A DNA stretch of 64,000 nucleotides from an uncultured bacterium (GTDB lineage: Bacteria; Eisenbacteria; RBG-16-71-46): positions 1,346 to 65,345 of the forward strand of contig CAYONG010000135.1 in NCBI GenBank assembly GCA_964405235.1, read 5' to 3'. This document shows positions 3,702 through 63,977 of the stretch, piece after piece (within the stretch, counting starts at the first letter, position 1; each line of letters opens with the position of its first letter). The position numbers and the translations under genes are program-made. The notes under the pieces are model-generated. The model was given only the letters and a program-made list of their open reading frames with translations. It was not told where the DNA came from and ran no database searches.

Positions 3702-4613
3702 CTAGGCGCCCGTATGGCCCAGCGTCCGCACCGCCGCGTCGGCCGCCATGAAGATGAATAGCAGGAACAGATAGAGGATCGAGTAGCGGAAGAGCAGGAC
3801 GGCGTGCGGGGTCGAGGCCGAACGCCAGAGCCGCGCGGCGTAGTAGATGAAGAGCCCGCCCAGGGCGGCCGCGGGCAGCCAGTAGAGCGGTCCCGACCCG
3901 CACAGCGGCGCCACCGCGAGCGTCACCGGCACCATCACCAGCGAGTAGAGGAGGATCTGGCGCCGGGTCTCGGCCTCGCCGTGGGTCACCGGGAGCATGG
4001 GGATGTTCGCGCGCAGGTAGTCTTCACGACGGTAGAGCGAGAGGGCCCAGAAGTGCGGCGGCGTCCACAGGAAGACGATGGCCGCGAGCAGGATCGCCGG
4101 CAGCTCGACCCGCCCGCTCACCGCCGCCCAGGCAATCAGGGGCGCCGAGGCCCCGGCCGCGCCGCCGATGACGATGTTCTGCGGCGTCCGCCGCTTGAGC
4201 CACATCGAGTAGATCACCGCGTAGTAGGCGATGGACGCCATCGCGATGCCGGCCGCGAGCATGTTGGCGCAAAGCATCAGGGTCACCCACGCGAGCGCGG
4301 CGAGCGCGAAGCCGACCACCAGGGCGTGGTGCGGCGGCAGAACGCCGGAGGGGAGCGGGCGCGTGGCGGTGCGATGCATCAATGCGTCGATGTCCCGGTC
4401 CACGTAATGATTGAAGCTCGCCGCCGAGCCCGCGGCGAACACGGTCCCGGCCAGCGTGCCCCAGAACAGGACCGGGTCCGCTAAGCCTCCGGCCGCGAGC
4501 AGCAGGGCCGGCACGGCCGTCACCATCACCAGCATGGAGATGCGCGGCTTGGTCAGTTCGAGATAGGCCAGCGCGCGACGTCGCGCGCCCACCGATGCCA
4601 GCGCCACGCTCAT
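3702..4613 (-). CDS. ctaB: Protoheme IX farnesyltransferase (heme O synthase)
   Basis: LELTKPRISMLV, NHYVDRDIDALMHRTATRPLPSG and LWTPPHFWALSL are UbiA-family CtaB/CyoE motifs. The start at MSVALAS (4613) overlaps the ctaA stop by 4 nt. The long track ORF (to 5450) overlaps ctaA out of frame. Confidence 0.9.
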   Translation of the reverse strand: MSVALASVGARRRALAYLELTKPRISMLVMVTAVPALLLAAGGLADPVLFWGTLAGTVFAAGSAASFNHYVDRDIDALMHRTATRPLPSGVLPPHHALVVGFALAALAWVTLMLCANMLAAGIAMASIAYYAVIYSMWLKRRTPQNIVIGGAAGASAPLIAWAAVSGRVELPAILLAAIVFLWTPPHFWALSLYRREDYLRANIPMLPVTHGEAETRRQILLYSLVMVPVTLAVAPLCGSGPLYWLPAAALGGLFIYYAARLWRSASTPHAVLLFRYSILYLFLLFIFMAADAAVRTLGHTGA

Positions 4614-5608
4614 GACGAAGCCGCCTCGCGGGAGCGCCACGCCACGCCCGAGGCGGGGACAGGGGCCGGGCCCGGGACCGCCGCGGTACGCGGCAGTAGG
4701 GCGATGCGCATCGTGGCGCTCAGCAGCACGCCCAGCAACGCGGTCGCGATCGCCAGATGCGCGGCCGAGAGCCACACCGGCGTCCGCAAGTAGACGTTGG
4801 ACACGCCGAGCACCACCTGCAGCACGACCAACCCCAGCGCCAGCGGGCCGGCCGCGCGCACCCGCGGATCTGGCGCCGAGCGCGCGAACGCCGCCGCGGC
4901 CAACACGAGGGCGGTGAGGAGATAGGCGCCATAGCGGTGCGCCATCTGCAGACCGACCAACCCCTGCAGCGGTGGGAACCACTCGCCGAAGCAGGCCGGC
5001 CAGTCGGGGCAGGCGAGCCCGGCGTGGTGGGTGCTCACCATGCCGCCGAGCAACGACTGGAGGTAGGTGAGCGTCGTCGCGCCCGCGAAGGCAGGCATCA
5101 GGCCCGCCGGCCGCGCCGTGGACGGGACGGCGCCCGCCTCGGCGGCCTGCCCCGCGACACGGGTGTAGCCGAGCAGCGTGGCGAAGATCAGCAGCGCGAC
5201 CGCGAGGTGCCCGCTCACCACCGAGGGATCGAGCAGCTTCCAGACCGTTAGCGCCCCGAGCAGAACCTGCACGGCGAGCAGGCTCAGGGCGAGAACGACC
5301 AGGCCACCGAGCCGCTTGCGCAGCACGGAGCGCATGAACGTCAGGACCGAGAGCGCGACCATCGACAGGCTCACCAGCAGCGCCACCAGGCGGTGGGTCC
5401 ACTCGATCATGACGTTGAACTGGAACGCGGGGATGAGCCGCCCCTGGCACAGCGGCCAGTCTGGACAGGCGAGACCCGAGCCGGTCGTGCGCACCACCGA
5501 GCCGATGACGATCAGGACGAAGGTGAGGAGCGTGGACGCAAACCCGAGGCGGGCGGCAAGGCGGAATGTGGGGTTCGCGGACAAGGTGCTCTCCTGCGCG
5601 AGATCCAC
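4610..5608 (-). CDS. ctaA: Heme A synthase (COX15/CtaA family)
   Basis: GSGLACPDWPLCQG and HAGLACPDWPACFG Cys pairs, HRLVA and HRYGA His motifs, about 8 TM segments. The start is uncertain: GTG 5608 or TTG 5584. Confidence 0.85.
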   Translation of the reverse strand: MDLAQESTLSANPTFRLAARLGFASTLLTFVLIVIGSVVRTTGSGLACPDWPLCQGRLIPAFQFNVMIEWTHRLVALLVSLSMVALSVLTFMRSVLRKRLGGLVVLALSLLAVQVLLGALTVWKLLDPSVVSGHLAVALLIFATLLGYTRVAGQAAEAGAVPSTARPAGLMPAFAGATTLTYLQSLLGGMVSTHHAGLACPDWPACFGEWFPPLQGLVGLQMAHRYGAYLLTALVLAAAAFARSAPDPRVRAAGPLALGLVVLQVVLGVSNVYLRTPVWLSAAHLAIATALLGVLLSATMRIALLPRTAAVPGPAPVPASGVAWRSREAASS

Positions 5609-55265: not shown

Positions 55266-56108
55266 CTAAGCCGAAACGGCTGCCTTCACCCCCGACGCCA
55301 GCACCGCCGGCATGGCGAACTCGACCCCTTCCCCGCGCGCGTGTCGCGCGGCTTCCCTCCGGGCCGCCACCCGGATCGCCGCCAGCGCCTCGGGGGTCTG
55401 CGCCAGCAGCAGCCCGCGCGTGCGCACGCCGCCCTCGAGGAATGCGTCCAGCAGCGCCTCGGGTGCGGGAAGCCGCCAGCGCATCGGTAGCTCCCGGACG
55501 GCGGCGTGTGAGAAGCCGGTCGCCGACAGCACGCGGCGGCACTCGTCGTGGTCGGCGAAGCGGAAGAACGGCGGGCCCTCGGGAAGTACCACGTCCATGC
55601 GGCCGTGCGCCTCGATGGCGTTCAGCACGATCGCGAAGCCCTCGCACTGCTCGGGCGGCGCCCACGCCGTGAACGCGAGACGGCCGCCGGGACGCAGCAC
55701 ACGGTGGGCCTCCGCGATCGCCCGATCGGGGCGCGCGAAGTGGAGCACGCCGAAGTTGATGACCACGGCGTCGAAGACGGCGTCATCGAACGGGAGGTCC
55801 TCCGCATCGCCGGTCCGGAACTCCACGCCCGGTTGGAGGCGCCCCGCCTCCTCGACCATCGCGGCGGCGAAGTCCATCCCGGTCGTGTTCGCGCCGCGCT
55901 TCACCGCCTCGGCGGCGGCGTCACCGGGTCCGCACGCCACGTCGAGCAGGCGTACACCGGGGCCGGCTGCGACGGCGTCGAGCAGCGGGCCGATGGACTG
56001 CGTGGTCAGGGACGAAAAAGCATCCCGATAAGGGAGCGCGACGCTCTCCCAGCCCTTGTGCTCGAAGGCTTTGAAGGCGTCGGTGGAGCGGGGGTCGGGC
56101 TCGGACAT
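55266..56108 (-). CDS. Class I SAM-dependent methyltransferase
   Basis: Motif I LLDVACGPG, and motif post-II FDAVVINFGVLHF...LRPGGRLAF. Confidence 0.85.
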   Translation of the reverse strand: MSEPDPRSTDAFKAFEHKGWESVALPYRDAFSSLTTQSIGPLLDAVAAGPGVRLLDVACGPGDAAAEAVKRGANTTGMDFAAAMVEEAGRLQPGVEFRTGDAEDLPFDDAVFDAVVINFGVLHFARPDRAIAEAHRVLRPGGRLAFTAWAPPEQCEGFAIVLNAIEAHGRMDVVLPEGPPFFRFADHDECRRVLSATGFSHAAVRELPMRWRLPAPEALLDAFLEGGVRTRGLLLAQTPEALAAIRVAARREAARHARGEGVEFAMPAVLASGVKAAVSA

Positions 56109-56823: not shown

Positions 56824-58104
56824 CTAGAACTGCTGCTCTTCGGTCGAGTCCTTGAGCGCCGCGGTGGAGAGCTGGCCGTCGGCGATCGTCTTCGCCACGT
56901 CGTCGAAGTAGCCGGTGCCGACGAAGCTCTGGTGCTTGACCGCCGCGTAGCCGTGCGGGTTGTTGAGAGCGAACTCGCGGTCCTGCAGCTTCGCGTAGGC
57001 CGACATGCCGCTCTCGCGATACTCACGCGACAATTCGAACATCCCGAGGTTGAGCGAGTGAAAACCCGCCAGGGTGACGAACTGGAACGCATAGCCCATC
57101 TCGCCCAGTTCCTTCTGGAACCTGCCGATGGTCGCGGCATCGAGGTGTTTGGACCAGTTGAACGAGGGCGAGCAATTGTAGGCCAGCAGCTTGTCGGGGT
57201 AGCGGGCGTGGATCGCCTCGGAGAAGGCGCGCGCCTCGTCGAGGTCGGGCGTTGACGTCTCGCACCAGATGAGATCGGCGTAAGGCGCGTAGGCGAGCCC
57301 GCGCGCGATCGCCGCTTCGAGCCCGCCCCGCACGTCGTAGAAACCCTCGGGCGTGCGCTCGCCGGTGAGGAACCCGCGGTCGCGGGAGTCGGAATCGCTG
57401 GTGATGAGCCGGGCGCTGCCGGCGTCGGTGCGCGCCACCAGCACGGTGGGCACATCCAGGATGTCGGCCGCGAGCCGAGCCGCGCACAGCTTGCGGATGA
57501 ACTCCTGGGTCGGGACCAGCACTTTGCCGCCCATGTGGCCGCACTTCTTGGCCGAAGCGAGCTGGTCCTCGAAGTGGACGCCGGCAGCCCCCGCCTCGAT
57601 CATCGCCTTCATCAGCTCGAAGGCGTTGAGGTCGCCGCCAAAGCCGGCCTCGGCGTCGGCGACGATCGGGGCGAACCACTCGACCTTGCCGCCGCGACCC
57701 TCCATGTGATCGATCTGGTCGGCGCGCTGGAGCGCGTGGTTGATGCGACGCACCACCGCGGGCACGCTGTCCACCGGATAGAGGCTCTGGTCCGGATACA
57801 TCTGTCCGGCGCTGTTGGCGTCGGCCGCCACCTGCCAACCGCTGAGATAGATGCCCTTGAGCCCCGCCGCCACCTGCTGCACCGCCTGGTTGCCGGTGAG
57901 CGCGCCGAGCGCCCGCACCGGCGGCTCGTGGGTCAGCAGGTGCCAGAGCCGCTCGGCGCCGCGGCGGGCGAGCGAGTGCTCGATGTGCACCGTGCCGCGC
58001 AGACGCATGACGTCGCCCGCCGTGTAGCTGCGATGGATACCCTGCCAGCGCGGGTCAGATGCCCACGAACGCTGGATCTCTTCGGCGCTGCGTTGGTGCG
58101 ACAT
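56824..58104 (-). CDS. aceA: Isocitrate lyase
   Basis: Catalytic loop KKCGHMGGK, plus WQVAADAN.., DAEAGFGG and SPSFNW. 426 aa from MSHQRSAEE. Confidence 0.95.
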
Positions 58105-58200
58105 GGGATCGCTCTCTCTGCGGGGGTCACGGACGGGCAACGCGGTGCCCGCCCACGGCTGCGGTCGGTCTCCCAGCTATCGGCAGGATGGCAGCGTGGC

Positions 58201-58899
58201 TTAAGCGCGGGACTCCGGATCCCAGAACGCACCCAGGAGCCCCACGGTCGCGAAGATCTCCCGCATCTCCTCGGGTCGCGACCTGCGCCACGTGGCTTGG
58301 AGGCGGGTCGTGAACCACGCGAGGGCGAGCCCCCACAGTTGGTCCATCCGTACGAGCGGTCGCACCGGGGCGCCCCTGGCATCGCACCATTCGCGAACCC
58401 GTTCTTCCGACCGGAAGAAGAGCATGGTGCTTCAGGTGAAAACGACGTCGTCCCACCAAAGGGCGGCCGGCAACAGGCAGTGGAACAGCCAGTCCGAGCG
58501 CTGGAGGCCGGTCGCGGAAACCTCGAGGCGCAGGGGCTCGAACGACTGTCCGCACCGGGACTGGATGCTCGCCGGCTTCCCGAGGGCGGCGGGAATACCG
58601 AGCGCGTCCCATGCGCAGTTGGCGAAATAGGAGACCCCTCCGGCATTCACGACATGCTCGGTCGGAACACCCGAGAACGGGGCCGCCATCCGGATCGAGG
58701 CCTCATCCGGCTCGAGCACGAGAATTCGCTGGTCCCGGAGCCGGCGAATAGCCTCGAGCACGGTGGGGACATCTGCCGCCACCTGGGCCGCCGTCTGCTC
58801 CGGTGACGGGCGGCCACCCGTCGCGACGAAGTGCCGGTAGACGGCGAGCCTGACCTGGAGGTCCAGATCCGCAGGCGTGGGGTCGAACGTGGTGCTCAT
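58201..58899 (-). CDS. MerB-family (alkylmercury-lyase-like) protein with a single in-frame TGA (58434-58432) at the catalytic-Cys159-equivalent position. It is either a candidate selenoprotein (232 aa including U) or a nonsense-disrupted gene.
   Basis: The track splits it into 58432..59091 and 58201..58425. Both are in the same frame, separated only by TGA-AGC-ACC. YFANCAWDALGIPAALG aligns to MerB YAWCALDTLIFPALIG (C96/D99). VFT-TGA-STMLFFRSEERVREW aligns to SFCCHVHFFASVPTAEDW (C159). Confidence 0.7.
58384..58429 (-). promoter_or_regulatory. SECIS-like RNA stem-loop directly downstream of the in-frame UGA
   Basis: The mRNA reads UGA-A-[GCACCAU]-GCUC-[UUCUUCC-GGUC-GGAAGAA]-CGGGUUCGCGA-[AUGGUGC]. 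The upper stem is a perfect 7 bp (58419-58413 pairs with 58408-58402). The lower stem is also 7 bp (58429-58423 pairs with 58390-58384). The upper stem begins 12 nt after the UGA. Confidence 0.5.
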
Positions 58900-58900
58900 G

Positions 58901-59473
58901 CTATGAACACCCATCGGGGCCGGCCGGATCGACGGCGGGCCGCGCAAGGCGGTAGGTCCACTCGTCGCTGGCGCGTCCCTTGAAAAAGTCCGCGTTCGGT
59001 CGGAACCCCTCGCGCTTGAATCCGAGGCGCTCGAGCAGCCGGATCGAGGGCCGATTGCGCGTGTCCACCTCGGCCACGATCCCGGTGACACCGCCCGCCT
59101 CGAACAGCGCCCGGATCACCGGGCGGCAGGCCTCGGTCGCGATGCCTTGTCGCCAGAACGCCGGGCCGATCTCGTAGGCGAGGTGCGCGCTGGCATCCTG
59201 GCGGATCGTCACCTCGACCCGGCCCACGCAGCGGCCGTCCGACTTCGAGCGCACGACCCAGTTGAGCCACCACTCGTCTTCCTTCGCCGACCGCCGGGTC
59301 TCGAGGCGCTCGTATCGTGCGGTGAGCGCCTCCAGCGTCGCGGGCGGATCGTGTGGGAGGTAGCGGTAGAGCCGCTCGTCCGAGAGGACCTCGAACAGTT
59401 CGGCGGCGTGGGCGCCCCGCAGCGGCTCGAGGTGGAGGCGTTCGGTCTCGTATCGAGTCTCGCCGATTTCCAT
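58901..59473 (-). CDS. GNAT-family N-acetyltransferase (RimJ/RimL-like)
   Basis: The pattern WW...VR...G..VG.V.......A.LAYEIGP.FWRQGIATEA.......F is typical of Acetyltransf_3. Its start overlaps the aceB stop by 1 nt, and its stop is 1 nt before the merB-like ATG. Confidence 0.85.
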   Translation of the reverse strand: MEIGETRYETERLHLEPLRGAHAAELFEVLSDERLYRYLPHDPPATLEALTARYERLETRRSAKEDEWWLNWVVRSKSDGRCVGRVEVTIRQDASAHLAYEIGPAFWRQGIATEACRPVIRALFEAGGVTGIVAEVDTRNRPSIRLLERLGFKREGFRPNADFFKGRASDEWTYRLARPAVDPAGPDGCS

Positions 59474-61056
59474 CACACCGGATCGAACCAGCCGTTCCTG
59501 ATCAGCTCTTCGCTCCTGTGCCGCGCCTCGCGCATGGTCTCGGGGGTCCCCAGGTCGCGCCCCGGCGTGGGCGAGTCGAGCAGGCGCGCGAGCTCCTCGT
59601 CGAAGAGCTGGCTTACCCGCTCGGGCGTGTGCGCGACCGCCTGCCCTGAACCGTCGGTGATGGTGACCGCATCGCGGTGCACCATGCGTTGGGCGATCAT
59701 CAGGCGGTAGATGCGGTCGGTGGCGAGGTCCTCCATGTAGCCGTCGAGGAGACTCGCCCCCCTGCCGTTGAGCACGCCGTTGCGGTAGCGGATCGCGGTG
59801 CGCACAGCCGCGCGCGTCCCATCCAACGAATGTCGCCCGACGCCGGCCGGAACCGGCCTCAAGTCCGGATAGCGTTCGACGCCGGGCGGCCTCGCGGCGA
59901 GCTGATTGGGCGCCGGGAACTGCGCGACTGCGATCGCGTTCTGGTCCGGGTGGCCAGTCCAGGCGCCGTCCATGAAGCACGCCGCCTCGTTCTTCTTGTC
60001 ATGCTCCAGCACCTCGAGCGCGCGGGCGTTGAGCTCGGCGTCCTCGCGGCTCGGGTAGAGCGCGGTCATGCCGCCGATCGCGAGCGCGCCCCGCCTGTGA
60101 CAGATGTCGGCGAGCAGGTGGCGCAGGCGCTGGAAGAACGGCACATCGTGCGGGATGGTATTGCGGTCGGGCAGCACCCAGGCGGGATCGGCGTGTGTGT
60201 AGTGGATGAGGCTCGCCATGTAATCCCAGCGCCCCAGGTTGAGACCCAGGATATGGCCGCGGAGATGATGGAGGAACTCCTCCATCTGATAGGCGAAAGG
60301 GTGGGATTCGACCAGCGCCATGCACTTGATGGTCCCCAAGGGCCAGCGCTTGGCGCGCTCCAGCGCGCCAAACACCTCCACCCACCAGAGTGCCTCCTCG
60401 GCCGATTCGGACTTGGGGATGTAAAAGCAGAGCGGATGGCGCAGCCGCTCCGCGTCCACCTGGTAGGTGATCAAGGCAAGATCGAACAGCGAGGCCGAGG
60501 TGAGGTCCTCCCCCGACAGCACCCCTGCCTGCGCGAGGTGGAGGCCGCGCACCCGCGACCAGATGACGGTCGGGCTGGGTTCGATGCCCACCGTGCGACC
60601 CCGCTTCTTGTCCTCGTAGGTCAGCTCGCCGCGCAGCGCGCCAAGGATATTGCGCACGCCGAGCATCAGGTTGGGCCAGGCGTTGGCCATCGAATCCTCG
60701 AGGTCGAGCATGACGCCCGGCGCCCCCGAGTTGAGCATCTTCACCACCAGCTCGCCGTCGTCGGCCGGGCCGGTCATCTGGTTGCGCTGATCCGCACACC
60801 AGGCGGGCAGCGTGATGCGCCAGTCGCCGGTCGTGGCGGAGGAGGCTGGGAGATGTTCCGGGAGGTGGCCGTGTTGCGCGGCAGCGAGGACGCGCAGCCG
60901 CTCAGCGGCGAGCGCCTGCTGGCGCGGCGTAAACGCGCGGTGGAGCGGCCCGTAGAAAGTCCAGAAACCCGAGGGCAGGTCGCGCTCGGGGTCGAACCCC
61001 GGGGGCGCATGGTTCATCCGCGGATCAAGCATCACCCTGGCCTGGGCTCGTCCCAC
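59473..61056 (-). CDS. aceB: Malate synthase (A-type)
   Basis: MLDLEDS, CMALVESHPFAYQMEEFL, LNLGRWDY, and FMDGAWTGHPDQ. The start is ambiguous (61056, 61032 or 61017). Confidence 0.9.
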   Translation of the reverse strand: MGRAQARVMLDPRMNHAPPGFDPERDLPSGFWTFYGPLHRAFTPRQQALAAERLRVLAAAQHGHLPEHLPASSATTGDWRITLPAWCADQRNQMTGPADDGELVVKMLNSGAPGVMLDLEDSMANAWPNLMLGVRNILGALRGELTYEDKKRGRTVGIEPSPTVIWSRVRGLHLAQAGVLSGEDLTSASLFDLALITYQVDAERLRHPLCFYIPKSESAEEALWWVEVFGALERAKRWPLGTIKCMALVESHPFAYQMEEFLHHLRGHILGLNLGRWDYMASLIHYTHADPAWVLPDRNTIPHDVPFFQRLRHLLADICHRRGALAIGGMTALYPSREDAELNARALEVLEHDKKNEAACFMDGAWTGHPDQNAIAVAQFPAPNQLAARPPGVERYPDLRPVPAGVGRHSLDGTRAAVRTAIRYRNGVLNGRGASLLDGYMEDLATDRIYRLMIAQRMVHRDAVTITDGSGQAVAHTPERVSQLFDEELARLLDSPTPGRDLGTPETMREARHRSEELIRNGWFDPV

Positions 61057-61081: not shown

Positions 61082-62332
61082 TTAGCGCAGCGCCAGCCCC
61101 GTGCCCACCTTCTGGGCCAGCCGCTCTCCGATGGCGGTGATGAAGCCCTCGGTCGTGGCGAAACGCGGGACGGGCGGCTGGGCGATCGCCGACAGGTCCT
61201 TGGTGACAGTGCCGCTCTCGATGGTCTCGATCACCGACTCCTCGAGCGCCCGAGCGAACGCGACCAGCTCGGGCGTGCCGTCGAGCTCGCCGCGCTTGGC
61301 CAGCGCGCCGGTCCACGCGAAGATGGTGGCGGTCGAATTGGTCGAGGTGGGCTCCCCGCGCTGGTGCTGGTAGTAGTGCTTCTGCACCGTGCCGTGCGCG
61401 GCCTCGTACTCGAAATGTCCCTCGGGCGAGACCAGCACCGAGGTCATCAGGCCCAGGCTGCCGAAGCCCGAGGCGACCATGTCGCTCATCACGTCGCCGT
61501 CGTAGTTCATGCACGCCCACAGGAACCCGCCCGGGGCCCGCACCGCGCGCGCCACGGCGTCGTCGATGAGCAGGTAAGTGTAGGAGATGCCGGCCTTCTC
61601 GAAGTCCGCCTTACGGGCCTCGACCTCCTGCCGGAAGATCTCACGGAACGCGCCGTGATAGACCTTGGCGATCGTGTCCTTGCCGCTGAACCACATGTCC
61701 ACCTTGTCGTGCAGTGCGTAGGTGATGCAGGCCTTGGCGAACGAGCGGATCGAGGCGTCCAGGTTGTGGACGCCGCGCACGATCCCCGAGGCCTTGAACT
61801 CGTGGACGAGAATCCGTTGCGGTCCGCTGCCGTCGGCCGGCGTGAAGACGAGCTCGACGCGCCCCGGCTGGCGGATGCGCATCTCTGCGCTCTTGTACAT
61901 GTCGCCGTAGGCGTGGCGGCCGATGATGATCGGCTTCACCCACGAGCGCACCATCGGCGGCACGTTCTTCACGATGATCGGCTTGCGGAAAACCGTGCCG
62001 TCGAGGATGGCGCGGATGGTGCCGTTCGGGCTCGGCCAGGCCTTCTTGAGCTTGTACTCGGTCACCCGATCGTCGTTGGGCGTGATGGTCGCGCACTTGA
62101 CGCCGACCCCGTACTTCCTGATCGCCTGGGCGGCCTCCACGGTGACGGCATCGTCGGTGCGGTCACGATTCGGCAGGTGGAGGTCGTAGGCTTCGAGCTT
62201 CACGTCCACGAAGGGTTCGATGAGTTGTTTCTTCACCATCGCCCAGATGACCCGGGTCATCTCGTCACCGTCCATCTCGACGATGGGGTTCTTCACCACT
62301 ACTCTGGGGGCTGCTCCGCCGTGCATGGTCAT
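61082..62332 (-). CDS. icd: NADP-dependent isocitrate dehydrogenase (homodimeric, eukaryote-like subfamily II)
   Basis: [40 protein letters not shown], and EAAHGTV..HY. Confidence 0.95.
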
Positions 62333-62493: not shown

Positions 62494-63681
62494 ATGCGCA
62501 TCGCCGTGCCGCGAGAGATCATCCCGGGCGAGAACCGCGTCGCTCTGGTGCCCGAGACCGTCGCCAAGCTCGTAAAGAGCGGACTCGAGGTCGCCGTGGA
62601 GACCGGCGCCGGGGCTCAGGCCATGTTTGCCGACGAGGCCTACCGCCAGGCGGGGGCCACCATCGTGCCCGGTGCGCGCGAGCTCTACGCCGCGGCCGAC
62701 GTGGTGCTCAAGGTGCGCGAACCGGTCGCCAGCGACACGCTCGCGGCGCACGAGGCCGACCTGATCCGCGAGGGCGCCACCCTCATCGCGTTCCTCGGCC
62801 GCGACGCGCAGAGCGAGGCGGCAAGGAAGATGGCCGCGCGCGGCATCACCGCCTTCTCGATGGAGATGATCCCGCGCATCTCGCGCGCCCAGAAGATGGA
62901 CGCCCTCTCCTCGATGAGCACCGTCGCCGGCTACAAGGCGGTGCTCATGGCAGCGGCGACACTCGGCAAGTTCTTCCCGCTCCTGATGACCGCGGCCGGC
63001 ACCATCGCCCCCGCGCGCGTGTTCGTGCTCGGGGCCGGTGTCGCAGGGCTCCAGGCGATCGCCACCGCGAGAAGACTCGGCGGGGTGGTCGAGGCGTTCG
63101 ACGTGCGGCCCGCGGTGCGCGAGGAGGTGCAGAGCCTGGGCGCGACGTTCGTGGGCCACGATCTGCTCGACGAGGCTGCCGTGGCGGCGGGTGGCTACGC
63201 GAAGGAGCTGACGCCCGAGCAGCAGGCGAAACAGCGCCAGCTCGTGGCCGACCGCTTGAAGCAGTCCGACGTGGTGGTGAGCACCGCGATGGTGCCGGGC
63301 CGCACGGCCCCCATCTTGATCCCCGAGGCGACCGTGCGCGAGATGCGGCCCGGCTCGGTGATCGTGGACCTGGCTGCCGAGATGGGCGGCAACTGCGAGC
63401 TGACCCAGGCCGGGGCGGATGTCGTGCGGCACGGGGTCACCATCCTCGGCCCCGTCAACCTCGCCGCGACGGTGCCGGTACACGCGAGCCAGATGTACGC
63501 GCGCAACATCTCGGCGCTGCTCACCCACCTGATCAAGGACAAGGCGCTGAGCCTAGACTTCGAGGACGAGATTACCCGCGACACCTGCCTGGTGCGGGCG
63601 GGCGCGGCCGCCGCATCTGCGGGCGCCGGCGCCGTCGCGGCCCCTATCGCGGCCCCCGTTGGCTCTGAGGCGACGTCATGA
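62494..63681 (+). CDS. pntAA: NAD(P) transhydrogenase subunit alpha, part 1 (dI domain)
   Basis: MRIAVPREIIPGENRVALVPE, and the Rossmann motif VFVLGAGVAGLQAIATARRLGG. Confidence 0.9.
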   Translation: MRIAVPREIIPGENRVALVPETVAKLVKSGLEVAVETGAGAQAMFADEAYRQAGATIVPGARELYAAADVVLKVREPVASDTLAAHEADLIREGATLIAFLGRDAQSEAARKMAARGITAFSMEMIPRISRAQKMDALSSMSTVAGYKAVLMAAATLGKFFPLLMTAAGTIAPARVFVLGAGVAGLQAIATARRLGGVVEAFDVRPAVREEVQSLGATFVGHDLLDEAAVAAGGYAKELTPEQQAKQRQLVADRLKQSDVVVSTAMVPGRTAPILIPEATVREMRPGSVIVDLAAEMGGNCELTQAGADVVRHGVTILGPVNLAATVPVHASQMYARNISALLTHLIKDKALSLDFEDEITRDTCLVRAGAAAASAGAGAVAAPIAAPVGSEATS

Positions 63682-63977
63682 GCCCCACACTGCTCGCCGA
63701 GATCTACGTGTTCGTGCTGGCGGTATTCGTGGGCTTCGAGGTCATTTCGAAGGTGCCGGTGGTGCTCCACACGCCGCTCATGTCGGGCACCAACGCCATC
63801 CACGGCATCGTCATGCTGGGCGGCGTGCTGGTGCTCGGGACCGCCGACAGCCCGCTGCTGGTCGCGCTCGGGTTCGCCGCCGTGGTGCTGGGGGCGATGA
63901 ACCTGTTCGGCGGGTTCGTGGTGACCGACCGCATGCTCTACATGTTCAAGAAGAAGCCGCAGGCCAAGCGCCCATGA
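63678..63977 (+). CDS. pntAB: NAD(P) transhydrogenase subunit alpha, part 2 (membrane dII segment)
   Basis: VFVGFEVISKVP..LHTPLMSGTNAIHGIV. 3-4 TM segments. It overlaps the neighbouring genes by 4 nt on each side. Confidence 0.9.
   Translation: MSPTLLAEIYVFVLAVFVGFEVISKVPVVLHTPLMSGTNAIHGIVMLGGVLVLGTADSPLLVALGFAAVVLGAMNLFGGFVVTDRMLYMFKKKPQAKRP

Follow-up and report, generated by a model that had tools for sequence, protein, structure and literature searches.

We report that the minus-strand gene at positions 58201-58899 of a 64,000-nucleotide stretch of DNA from an uncultured Eisenbacteria bacterium (contig CAYONG010000135.1; hereafter the window) is, with a probability of about 0.88, a genuine and intact selenoprotein gene of the MerB family. 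The MerB fold cleaves carbon-metal bonds, and in the window gene an in-frame TGA stands at the codon of the second catalytic cysteine (Cys). The original prediction, made from the letters of the window, took this TGA for a selenocysteine (Sec) codon and a hairpin just beyond it for a selenocysteine insertion sequence (SECIS). This core reading is borne out by comparison with relatives, among which the TGA is invariant, the frame beyond it is conserved, Cys-containing homologues occur and the hairpin covaries. That the UGA is read as Sec and not as some other residue is our inference, and the conserved Cys/Asp/Sec triad together with the fold suggests, by analogy, that the enzyme is an organometal lyase.

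In the mechanism that we propose, a ribosome arriving at UGA 58432-58434 would be followed on the message by the hairpin at 58402-58419, which as a bacterial SECIS would recruit SelB-GTP-Sec-tRNA(Sec). Sec would then be inserted as residue 156, and translation would run on to complete the fold with its last 76 residues. The resulting active site would consist of Cys95, Asp98 and Sec156, where, by analogy with MerB, an organometal may be bound through sulfur and selenium and its carbon protonated through the Asp.

The idea of Sec in a MerB-like protein is not new, because SaoL (NF040728), a MerB-like Sec protein, has already been described by Haft and Gwadz (bioRxiv 10.1101/2022.07.06.499078) and is listed in PMC9312934 and PMC13188914. 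The original prediction knew of no described Sec-containing member of the family and has to be corrected on this point, as SaoL carries its Sec on the same column.

Reading frame and conservation of the TGA

Re-reading of the sequence showed that the two open reading frames (ORFs) from which the prediction started, 58432..59091 and 58201..58425, indeed lie on the minus strand in one frame, with TGA AGC ACC between them. Translation from ATG 58899 joins them, as had been stated, into a MerB-family protein of 232 codons, namely 155 amino acids, the TGA and 76 amino acids, followed by a TAA. The TGA is the sole interruption, with no frameshifts in the gene, and the ATG lies one base past the TAG stop of the upstream GNAT acetyltransferase gene. 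When the site is filled with Cys, the translation matches the Pfam MerB family PF03243 at 99.8 bits (cut-off 27; E=1.4e-28) over residues 75-196, a segment that spans the TGA.

The position of the TGA relative to the catalytic residues was determined with phmmer against MerB sequences of the PDB (1s6l and related entries), the site being occupied by the unbiased residue X. X pairs with the first C of SF-CC-HVHFF, which is Cys159, and the NCAWD of the window protein aligns to the WCALD of MerB, which holds Cys96 and Asp99. The alignment given with the original prediction is thereby upheld in each of its parts: the TGA falls on the column of the second catalytic Cys, the equivalents of Cys96 and Asp99 are kept (and are invariant in the clade), and the conserved FF follows five residues past the site, as in MerB. 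With Cys95 and Asp98 on Cys96 and Asp99 and the UGA on Cys159, the catalytic triad is complete only if the UGA is read as Sec or Cys.

The fold was modelled on a full-length homologue, P0005, which is 56% identical to the window protein. The AlphaFold2 model of P0005, for which the input alignment was made up of N- and C-terminal fragments, has a predicted local distance difference test (pLDDT) score of 83.5, and the 11 PDB structures that it matches best are without exception MerB or MerB2 entries, with template modelling (TM) scores of 0.55-0.69 over ~190-203 columns; against MerB2 (5c17) and MerB (3f0o), the scores are 0.60-0.69 over ~200 columns. As the model matches these structures, the segment after the TGA belongs to the same domain, and the two ORFs are best read as one gene for a MerB-family protein.

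A protein search of 5.8 billion sequences returned 3113 relatives; among the best 120 of these, 116 are 136-163 residues long and cover just 59-67% of the query, and the truncated relatives end at ...WWDD[IV]VFT in all 15 sequences fetched. When the tail segment was searched, the best 120 of 307 relatives were almost all ORFs of 70-86 amino acids. A scan of one genome per species found relatives encoded in 407 genomes, of which the best 80 loci were kept. Their hosts belong to the Acidobacteriota (Thermoanaerobaculia, Terriglobia, Blastocatellia, Vicinamibacteria), Verrucomicrobiota including Ca. Udaeobacter, Gemmatimonadota, Chloroflexota, Ca. Eisenbacteria, Planctomycetota, Anaeromyxobacteraceae and a few other groups; a few of the host labels among L001-L080 (Patescibacteria, Clostridia, Azonexus) may be binning errors. 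In 80/80 of these loci, TGA directly follows ...FT, and the frame past it reads x-N/T-M-L-F-F-R-S-E-E-R-V-R-E-W-C...F-W-D-P-x-S-D-x-F-G.

Divergent truncated forms (30-43% mutual identity) served as seeds for a scan of metagenomes, which added 80 more loci, 73 of them resolvable; all 73 have TGA at the same position, with the in-frame tail K-T-M-L-L-F-R-S-E-Q/E-H-V-D-R-W-C.... Overall, the TGA is invariant in 154 sequences, down to ~36% protein identity, and neither TAA nor TAG occurs at the site among the 80 genome and 73 metagenome loci. TGA is the commonest ordinary stop of the window, where it terminates 29 of the 46 likely genes (63%), a usage that also excludes genetic codes 4 and 25. 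The relatives supply 142 distinct 45-nt segments, and are thus not artefact copies of one sequence. Past the TGA, the amino acids of the 80 close-clade sequences are conserved and the synonymous sites free to vary, which indicates that the tail is translated in this frame.

These comparisons bear directly on the competing explanation raised with the prediction itself, a recent nonsense mutation, under which the gene would only lately have become a pseudogene and its hairpin would be a chance by-product of coding for FFRSEE. Public gene calls do list the halves as separate ORFs, and the non-significant fold of the single sequence and the missing Rfam SECIS match (both detailed below) would be expected of such a copy. 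A fresh mutation is, however, at odds with one TGA shared by 80/80 species genomes and 73/73 metagenome contigs from many phyla and at so low an identity, with amino acids conserved downstream of it over variable synonymous sites, and with the lack of frameshifts; moreover, the sole copy found without the TGA (L088, with AGA) has hairpin mutations and an early stop, like a gene in decay. In our judgement this explanation retains next to no probability, and the comparative data already refute it.

A few individual loci deviate from the common pattern. In L088 (505-1029), AGA replaces TGA, the hairpin carries ACC->ATC, TTC->TTT and GAA->AAA, and there is an early stop too; either decay of the copy or an assembly rich in errors is the probable cause. 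Two metagenome loci with seeming read-through, L116 and L117, were considered as Cys forms and rejected, both being frameshifted. In L009, L030, L035 and L060, the tail sequence is lost part-way in the post-TGA region by apparent frameshift or truncation, which possibly reflects sequencing errors in metagenome-assembled genomes (MAGs) or real decay.

The SECIS-like hairpin and the Cys-containing homologues

The hairpin lies within the codons F-F-R-S-E-E, its stem starting 12 nt and its loop 19 nt past the UGA. Sequence and fold agree with the description first given of it, a perfect 7-bp stem with a GGUC tetraloop 12 nt past the UGA, and UUCUUCC-GGUC-GGAAGAA is found just once in the window. 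Set against the bacterial SECIS consensus criteria given in PMC13188914, the loop (GGUC, GG first, 4 nt), the 7-bp stem and the UGA-loop distance of 19 nt all conform; the minimum free energy, from -7.5 kcal/mol for the 18-nt hairpin to -9.8 kcal/mol for 25 nt, lies at the limit of the energy criterion. The E. coli fdhF SECIS as given with the original prediction, UGA + 12 nt + GUUGCA-GGUC-UGCACC, proved correct when checked on MG1655. Like that element (RF01988, SECIS_2), the window hairpin sits in coding sequence and has a GGUC apical loop, which starts 19 nt past the UGA compared with 18 nt in fdhF; unlike it, the window stem is a perfect 7 bp without a bulged U, its sequence is unrelated, and RF01988 gives no match.

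Selection on the RNA is visible in the codons that form the hairpin. Codons +5 to +8 (TTC TTC CGG TCG) have zero synonymous entropy in the 80 close-clade sequences, CGG being used in 80/80 out of six Arg codons and TCG in 80/80 out of six Ser codons, compared with 0.8-2 bits where these 80 genes have conserved codons for Arg, Ser and Phe elsewhere. The RNAalifold consensus retains only the 7-bp stem and the GGUC loop. In divergent clades, CTG TTC CGG TCG GAA CAG yields CUGUUCC/GGAACAG, CTC...GAG converts a U-A pair to C-G, and where CGG TCG has become TGG TCA, the closing pair is U-A instead of C-G, an Arg->Trp replacement being coupled to a synonymous Ser change. Across the 142 distinct sequences, 98.1% of cells are paired, compared with 90.6% after shuffling (the observed figure being reached by 0/500 shuffles) and 40-63% once the partner is displaced by 1-3 columns. 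Two-sided changes affect 3/7 pairs and 86 cells: 16-33 (UA 63, CG 52), 18-31 (CG 116, GC 26) and 22-27 (CG 132, UA 8). Orthologues keeping both the TGA and the hairpin, with compensatory changes, had been proposed as a check on the prediction, and these relatives provide them. The hairpin is under RNA-level selection.

The second stem of the original description, GCACCAU/AUGGUGC, does form in the minimum-free-energy fold of the window sequence, but it is not conserved: just 5/80 and 2/70 relatives can form its full set of seven pairs, and it is missing from the RNAalifold consensus. We rejected it as part of the element, since it is lineage-specific, and it probably lies outside the functional unit. 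Among L001-L080, proteins from different phyla that are 58-73% identical share a nucleotide-identical 18-nt hairpin, a combination that indicates horizontal transfer.

Homologues with Cys at the site were sought in an exhaustive HMMER search of 1.84 billion cluster representatives with P0005 as the query, which returned 1885 relatives. Among the best 150, 65 end exactly at the site and 16 are full-length proteins (~220-240 amino acids) with Cys in the motif ...T-C-xT.L.F...; the rest comprise four with W, as in P0005, one with Pro (P0296) and 64 that the motif search could not classify. A 43-residue query spanning the Cys site returned two fragments only. The Cys forms (e.g. P0242, P0245, P0266 and P0283) are 27-43% identical over their full length and have the ...WWDDI..T-[C/U]-xT.L.FRS... 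motif and C-terminal tail of the window protein. They differ from the window gene in their site codon, which is TGC instead of TGA in the DNA of four, in their Arg codon, CGC instead of CGG, and in the absence of the C-GGUC-G hairpin, the last two seen in 4/4 genes with DNA, a small sample. The expectation that homologues would carry Cys at the aligned site was thus realised in the more distant full-length ones, and Cys homologues beside TGA forms are the classical signature of a Sec/Cys pair. A gene for a MerR-family regulator (PF13411; L172, 2843-3262) lies ~1.8 kb from the Cys form P0266; no MerR-family neighbour was seen near the Sec forms examined.

Points against Sec insertion and alternative decoding

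Several observations weigh against the selenoprotein reading. The single-sequence fold is no stabler than shuffles (z = -0.84), so the case depends on the comparison with relatives. The stem is partly dictated by the peptide F-F..E-E, with wobble pairs absorbing synonymous changes; its conservation alone is therefore weak evidence, and the argument for RNA selection draws instead on the frozen CGG TCG codons and the coupled amino-acid changes. The Rfam SECIS models match neither the window at the gathering score nor positions 58300-58500 at E<=10, a chance mir-490 match being all that appeared, while the same search found the E. coli fdhF SECIS, used as a positive control, at 87.1 bits (SECIS_2). 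A covariance-model score at background level was among the results that the original prediction had named as speaking against it, and on this formal point the outcome went against the prediction; in our reading, the Rfam SECIS models are specific to particular gene families, and the miss does not outweigh the comparative data. Furthermore, an ATG 6 nt past the TGA is kept in 140/150 sequences, which is compatible with re-initiation; selA, selB, selD and tRNA-Sec were not found in the window by tblastn with E. coli SelA, SelB and SelD and by a tRNA scan; and no conserved neighbour suggests a substrate, as judged from the clustered flanks of the 80 loci and from checked gene calls.

The downstream ATG invites a model of a split enzyme, in which translation would stop at the UGA, the C-terminal 74 residues would be made by re-initiation at this ATG, and the two pieces would assemble into a MerB fold without the second catalytic thiol. 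Every annotation pipeline does call two ORFs, the ATG at codon +3 is as frequent as stated above, and coupling could in principle be aided by ribosomes pausing at the hairpin. Yet ATC or ATA stands at the ATG position in 8/150 relatives, which speaks against the tail being an independent downstream gene, and no Shine-Dalgarno-like sequence precedes the ATG. The exclusive use of TGA also speaks against plain termination: neither TAA nor TAG ever takes its place here, while in the window just 63% of the likely genes end in TGA. Spacing and phase do not vary, and in-frame conservation extends to the two codons in between. Finally, the stop falls exactly on the catalytic Cys column of MerB and of the subfamily's own Cys forms, and the loop and spacing of the hairpin are those of a SECIS. 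We consider a split enzyme very improbable.

As to the decoding machinery, the window contains no tRNA genes, and tblastn with the E. coli queries found no SelA, SelB or SelD in ~0.7 Mb of relatives' flanks. Other in-frame-TGA gene pairs of the window with coding-like G+C content at third codon positions are only ordinary adjacent genes, and the scan for them gave no further selenoprotein candidate in the window. In one relative, a Chloroflexia MAG (L019), a tRNA-Sec gene lies at 4169-4264 on the minus strand, ~500 nt downstream of the MerB-like gene; it is called by ARAGORN and scores 58.6 bits with Rfam RF01852 against a cut-off of 47. Directly after this tRNA-Sec, inspection of the translation revealed a tyrosine-recombinase integrase-like ORF (4391-5092), and the arrangement is suggestive of selC as an integration hot spot. 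Sec decoding has been documented in some Acidobacteria and Chloroflexi (PMC1794560).

A last alternative accepts read-through but not Sec: an opal-suppressor tRNA(Cys) resembling tRNA(Sec) could place Cys at the UGA, or near-cognate reading stimulated by the hairpin could place Trp there. Opal-suppressor tRNAs of this kind are known from Deltaproteobacteria, with related allo-tRNAs in Acidobacteria (PMC5389517), hence from some of the phyla involved; Cys at the site would restore the canonical MerB triad, and the Sec machinery was not found in the window. A lineage that needed Cys could, however, use TGC, as the Cys forms do, and the hairpin fits both the SelB-type consensus and the E. coli fdhF loop. 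A genuine tRNA-Sec (RF01852 above threshold) adjoins the gene in one host, and a UGA maintained with its hairpin across phyla is the usual signature of Sec. Reading of the UGA as a residue other than Sec is accordingly rated as very improbable.

Relation to known families, genomic context and annotation

The window protein resembles MerB (plasmid R831b; 1s6l, 3f0o, 3f0p) and MerB2 (5c17) in its Pfam family, its fold and the Cys-x-x-Asp motif, and likewise in having the third ligand on the same column with FF five residues downstream. It departs from them in its ~20% identity, in the proposed Sec for Cys159 without the adjacent Cys160, and in its location outside a mer operon. Its scores with the NCBIfam MerB equivalogs NF009710 and NF033555 are below the cut-offs, at 48.8 bits compared with 193 and 43.8 compared with 200.

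In SaoL, Sec162 aligns to MerB Cys159 within a C-U motif, the gene belongs to a nine-gene SAO locus of anaerobes, and the protein is likewise truncated at the UGA in databases (bioRxiv 10.1101/2022.07.06.499078). The window protein shares with SaoL the MerB fold (PF03243), a UGA-encoded Sec on the Cys159 column, the Cys96 and Asp99 equivalents, the truncation of database entries at the UGA, and the rare use of Sec for binding a metal instead of for redox chemistry. The two differ in most other respects. The SaoL model NF040728, whose cut-off is 140 bits, gives the window protein 38.7 and matches it over residues 41-130 alone; the motif of the window protein is F-T-U-S ([FY]-[TN]-U in relatives) instead of C-U, and ~76 residues follow the Sec, compared with ~50 in SaoL. 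The neighbours of the window gene are glyoxylate-shunt genes and a GNAT gene, not conserved in relatives, rather than a SAO locus, and whereas the hosts of SaoL are exclusively anaerobic, those of the window clade are mainly soil Acidobacteriota, Verrucomicrobiota, Gemmatimonadota and Chloroflexota. Judged by these features, the window clade is outside the SaoL family though it shares the Sec column. No description of the clade was found in the searchable literature, which is no proof of absence, and the table of a 2026 review lists only SaoL under MerB-like. The clade thus appears to be an unrecognised variant, widespread in soil, of a concept that is itself known.

The features of the gene and of its surroundings are collected in Table 1. 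The GNAT and MerB-like genes form a pair inside a glyoxylate-shunt cluster, between malate synthase and isocitrate lyase and with isocitrate dehydrogenase and transhydrogenase genes close by, an arrangement not seen in the relatives examined. A simple ORF picker was unreliable for the flanks at this G+C content, and precomputed gene calls were checked as well. No merA, merR, merT or merP was seen in the neighbourhoods examined, around the window gene or in relatives. The SAO-type ABC-transporter/efflux set is absent from the gene neighbourhoods in the window and in L081-L083, which differ from one another; the Sao models were not searched explicitly. The MerB-like gene appears to stand alone, and without a mer operon or SAO locus, classical mercury resistance is not implied.

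Table 1. Coordinates in the window of the recoded gene, its elements and the neighbouring genes.
Feature	Position	Strand	Details
Recoded coding sequence	58201..58899	minus	ATG 58899, 155 codons, TGA (Sec156), 76 codons, TAA 58201-58203
Cys95 codon TGC	58615..58617	minus	Equivalent to MerB Cys96; invariant in the clade
Asp98 codon GAC	58606-58608	minus	Equivalent to MerB Asp99; invariant in the clade
TGA, proposed Sec codon (residue 156)	58432..58434	minus	Aligned to MerB catalytic Cys159
C-terminal 76 codons after the TGA	58204..58431	minus	STMLFFRSEERVREWC...FWDPESRA
SECIS-like hairpin	58402..58419	minus	5' arm UUCUUCC 58413-58419, loop GGUC 58409-58412, 3' arm GGAAGAA 58402-58408
Outer stem	58384..58430	minus	GCACCAU 58424-58430 / AUGGUGC 58384-58390; in the minimum-free-energy fold of the window sequence
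Methyltransferase	55266-56108		
ORF of 168 amino acids	56163-56669	minus	Hydrophobic N-terminus, no Pfam match; between methyltransferase and isocitrate lyase
Isocitrate lyase	56824-58140		
GNAT acetyltransferase	about 58901-59473		
Malate synthase	59473-61056		
Isocitrate dehydrogenase	61082-62332		
Transhydrogenase subunits (pntA-type)	62494-63977		

Public records of close relatives are affected by the TGA in all cases examined: they are either split into an "alkylmercury lyase" of 146-155 amino acids and an orphan "hypothetical protein" of roughly 76 amino acids (range 74-86), or read through with Trp or Gly. For P0005, which has W at the site (L087, 191-868), the DNA has TGA and gives no translation under code 11; the caller therefore took TGA as sense, and code 4 fits the W. 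P0157, with G, probably represents the same artefact, fitting code 25. Further Trp or Gly read-through calls are P0247, P0255, P0280 and P0317. Gene callers seem to have switched to code 4 or 25 on short contigs, an artefact that hides the selenoprotein. The clade is covered by no NCBIfam model, and many soil MAGs would have their records repaired by a corrected one. In Acidobacteria, a mer-gene census of 2021 listed no MerB homologue (PMC8261052); the MerB-like family is nonetheless common there, and relatives occur in 407 species-level genomes.

Together with SaoL, the window clade would be a second, apparently separate case of Sec serving as a metal ligand rather than as a redox residue. 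Its SECIS is near-identical across phyla and fdhF-like, which makes heterologous expression in E. coli realistic. We also entertain, as a possibility that we regard as doubtful, the broader proposal that these genes constitute an uncatalogued, Sec-dependent T-U clade of MerB, spread (probably horizontally) through at least 10 mostly soil phyla with a near-invariant GGUC SECIS, and acting as a mer-independent organometal lyase, for example a methylmercury demethylase. If this is true, surveys of mercury-cycling genes miss the clade, because databases cut the gene at the UGA, and some of the demethylation capacity of soils that mer genes leave unexplained may be due to this clade.

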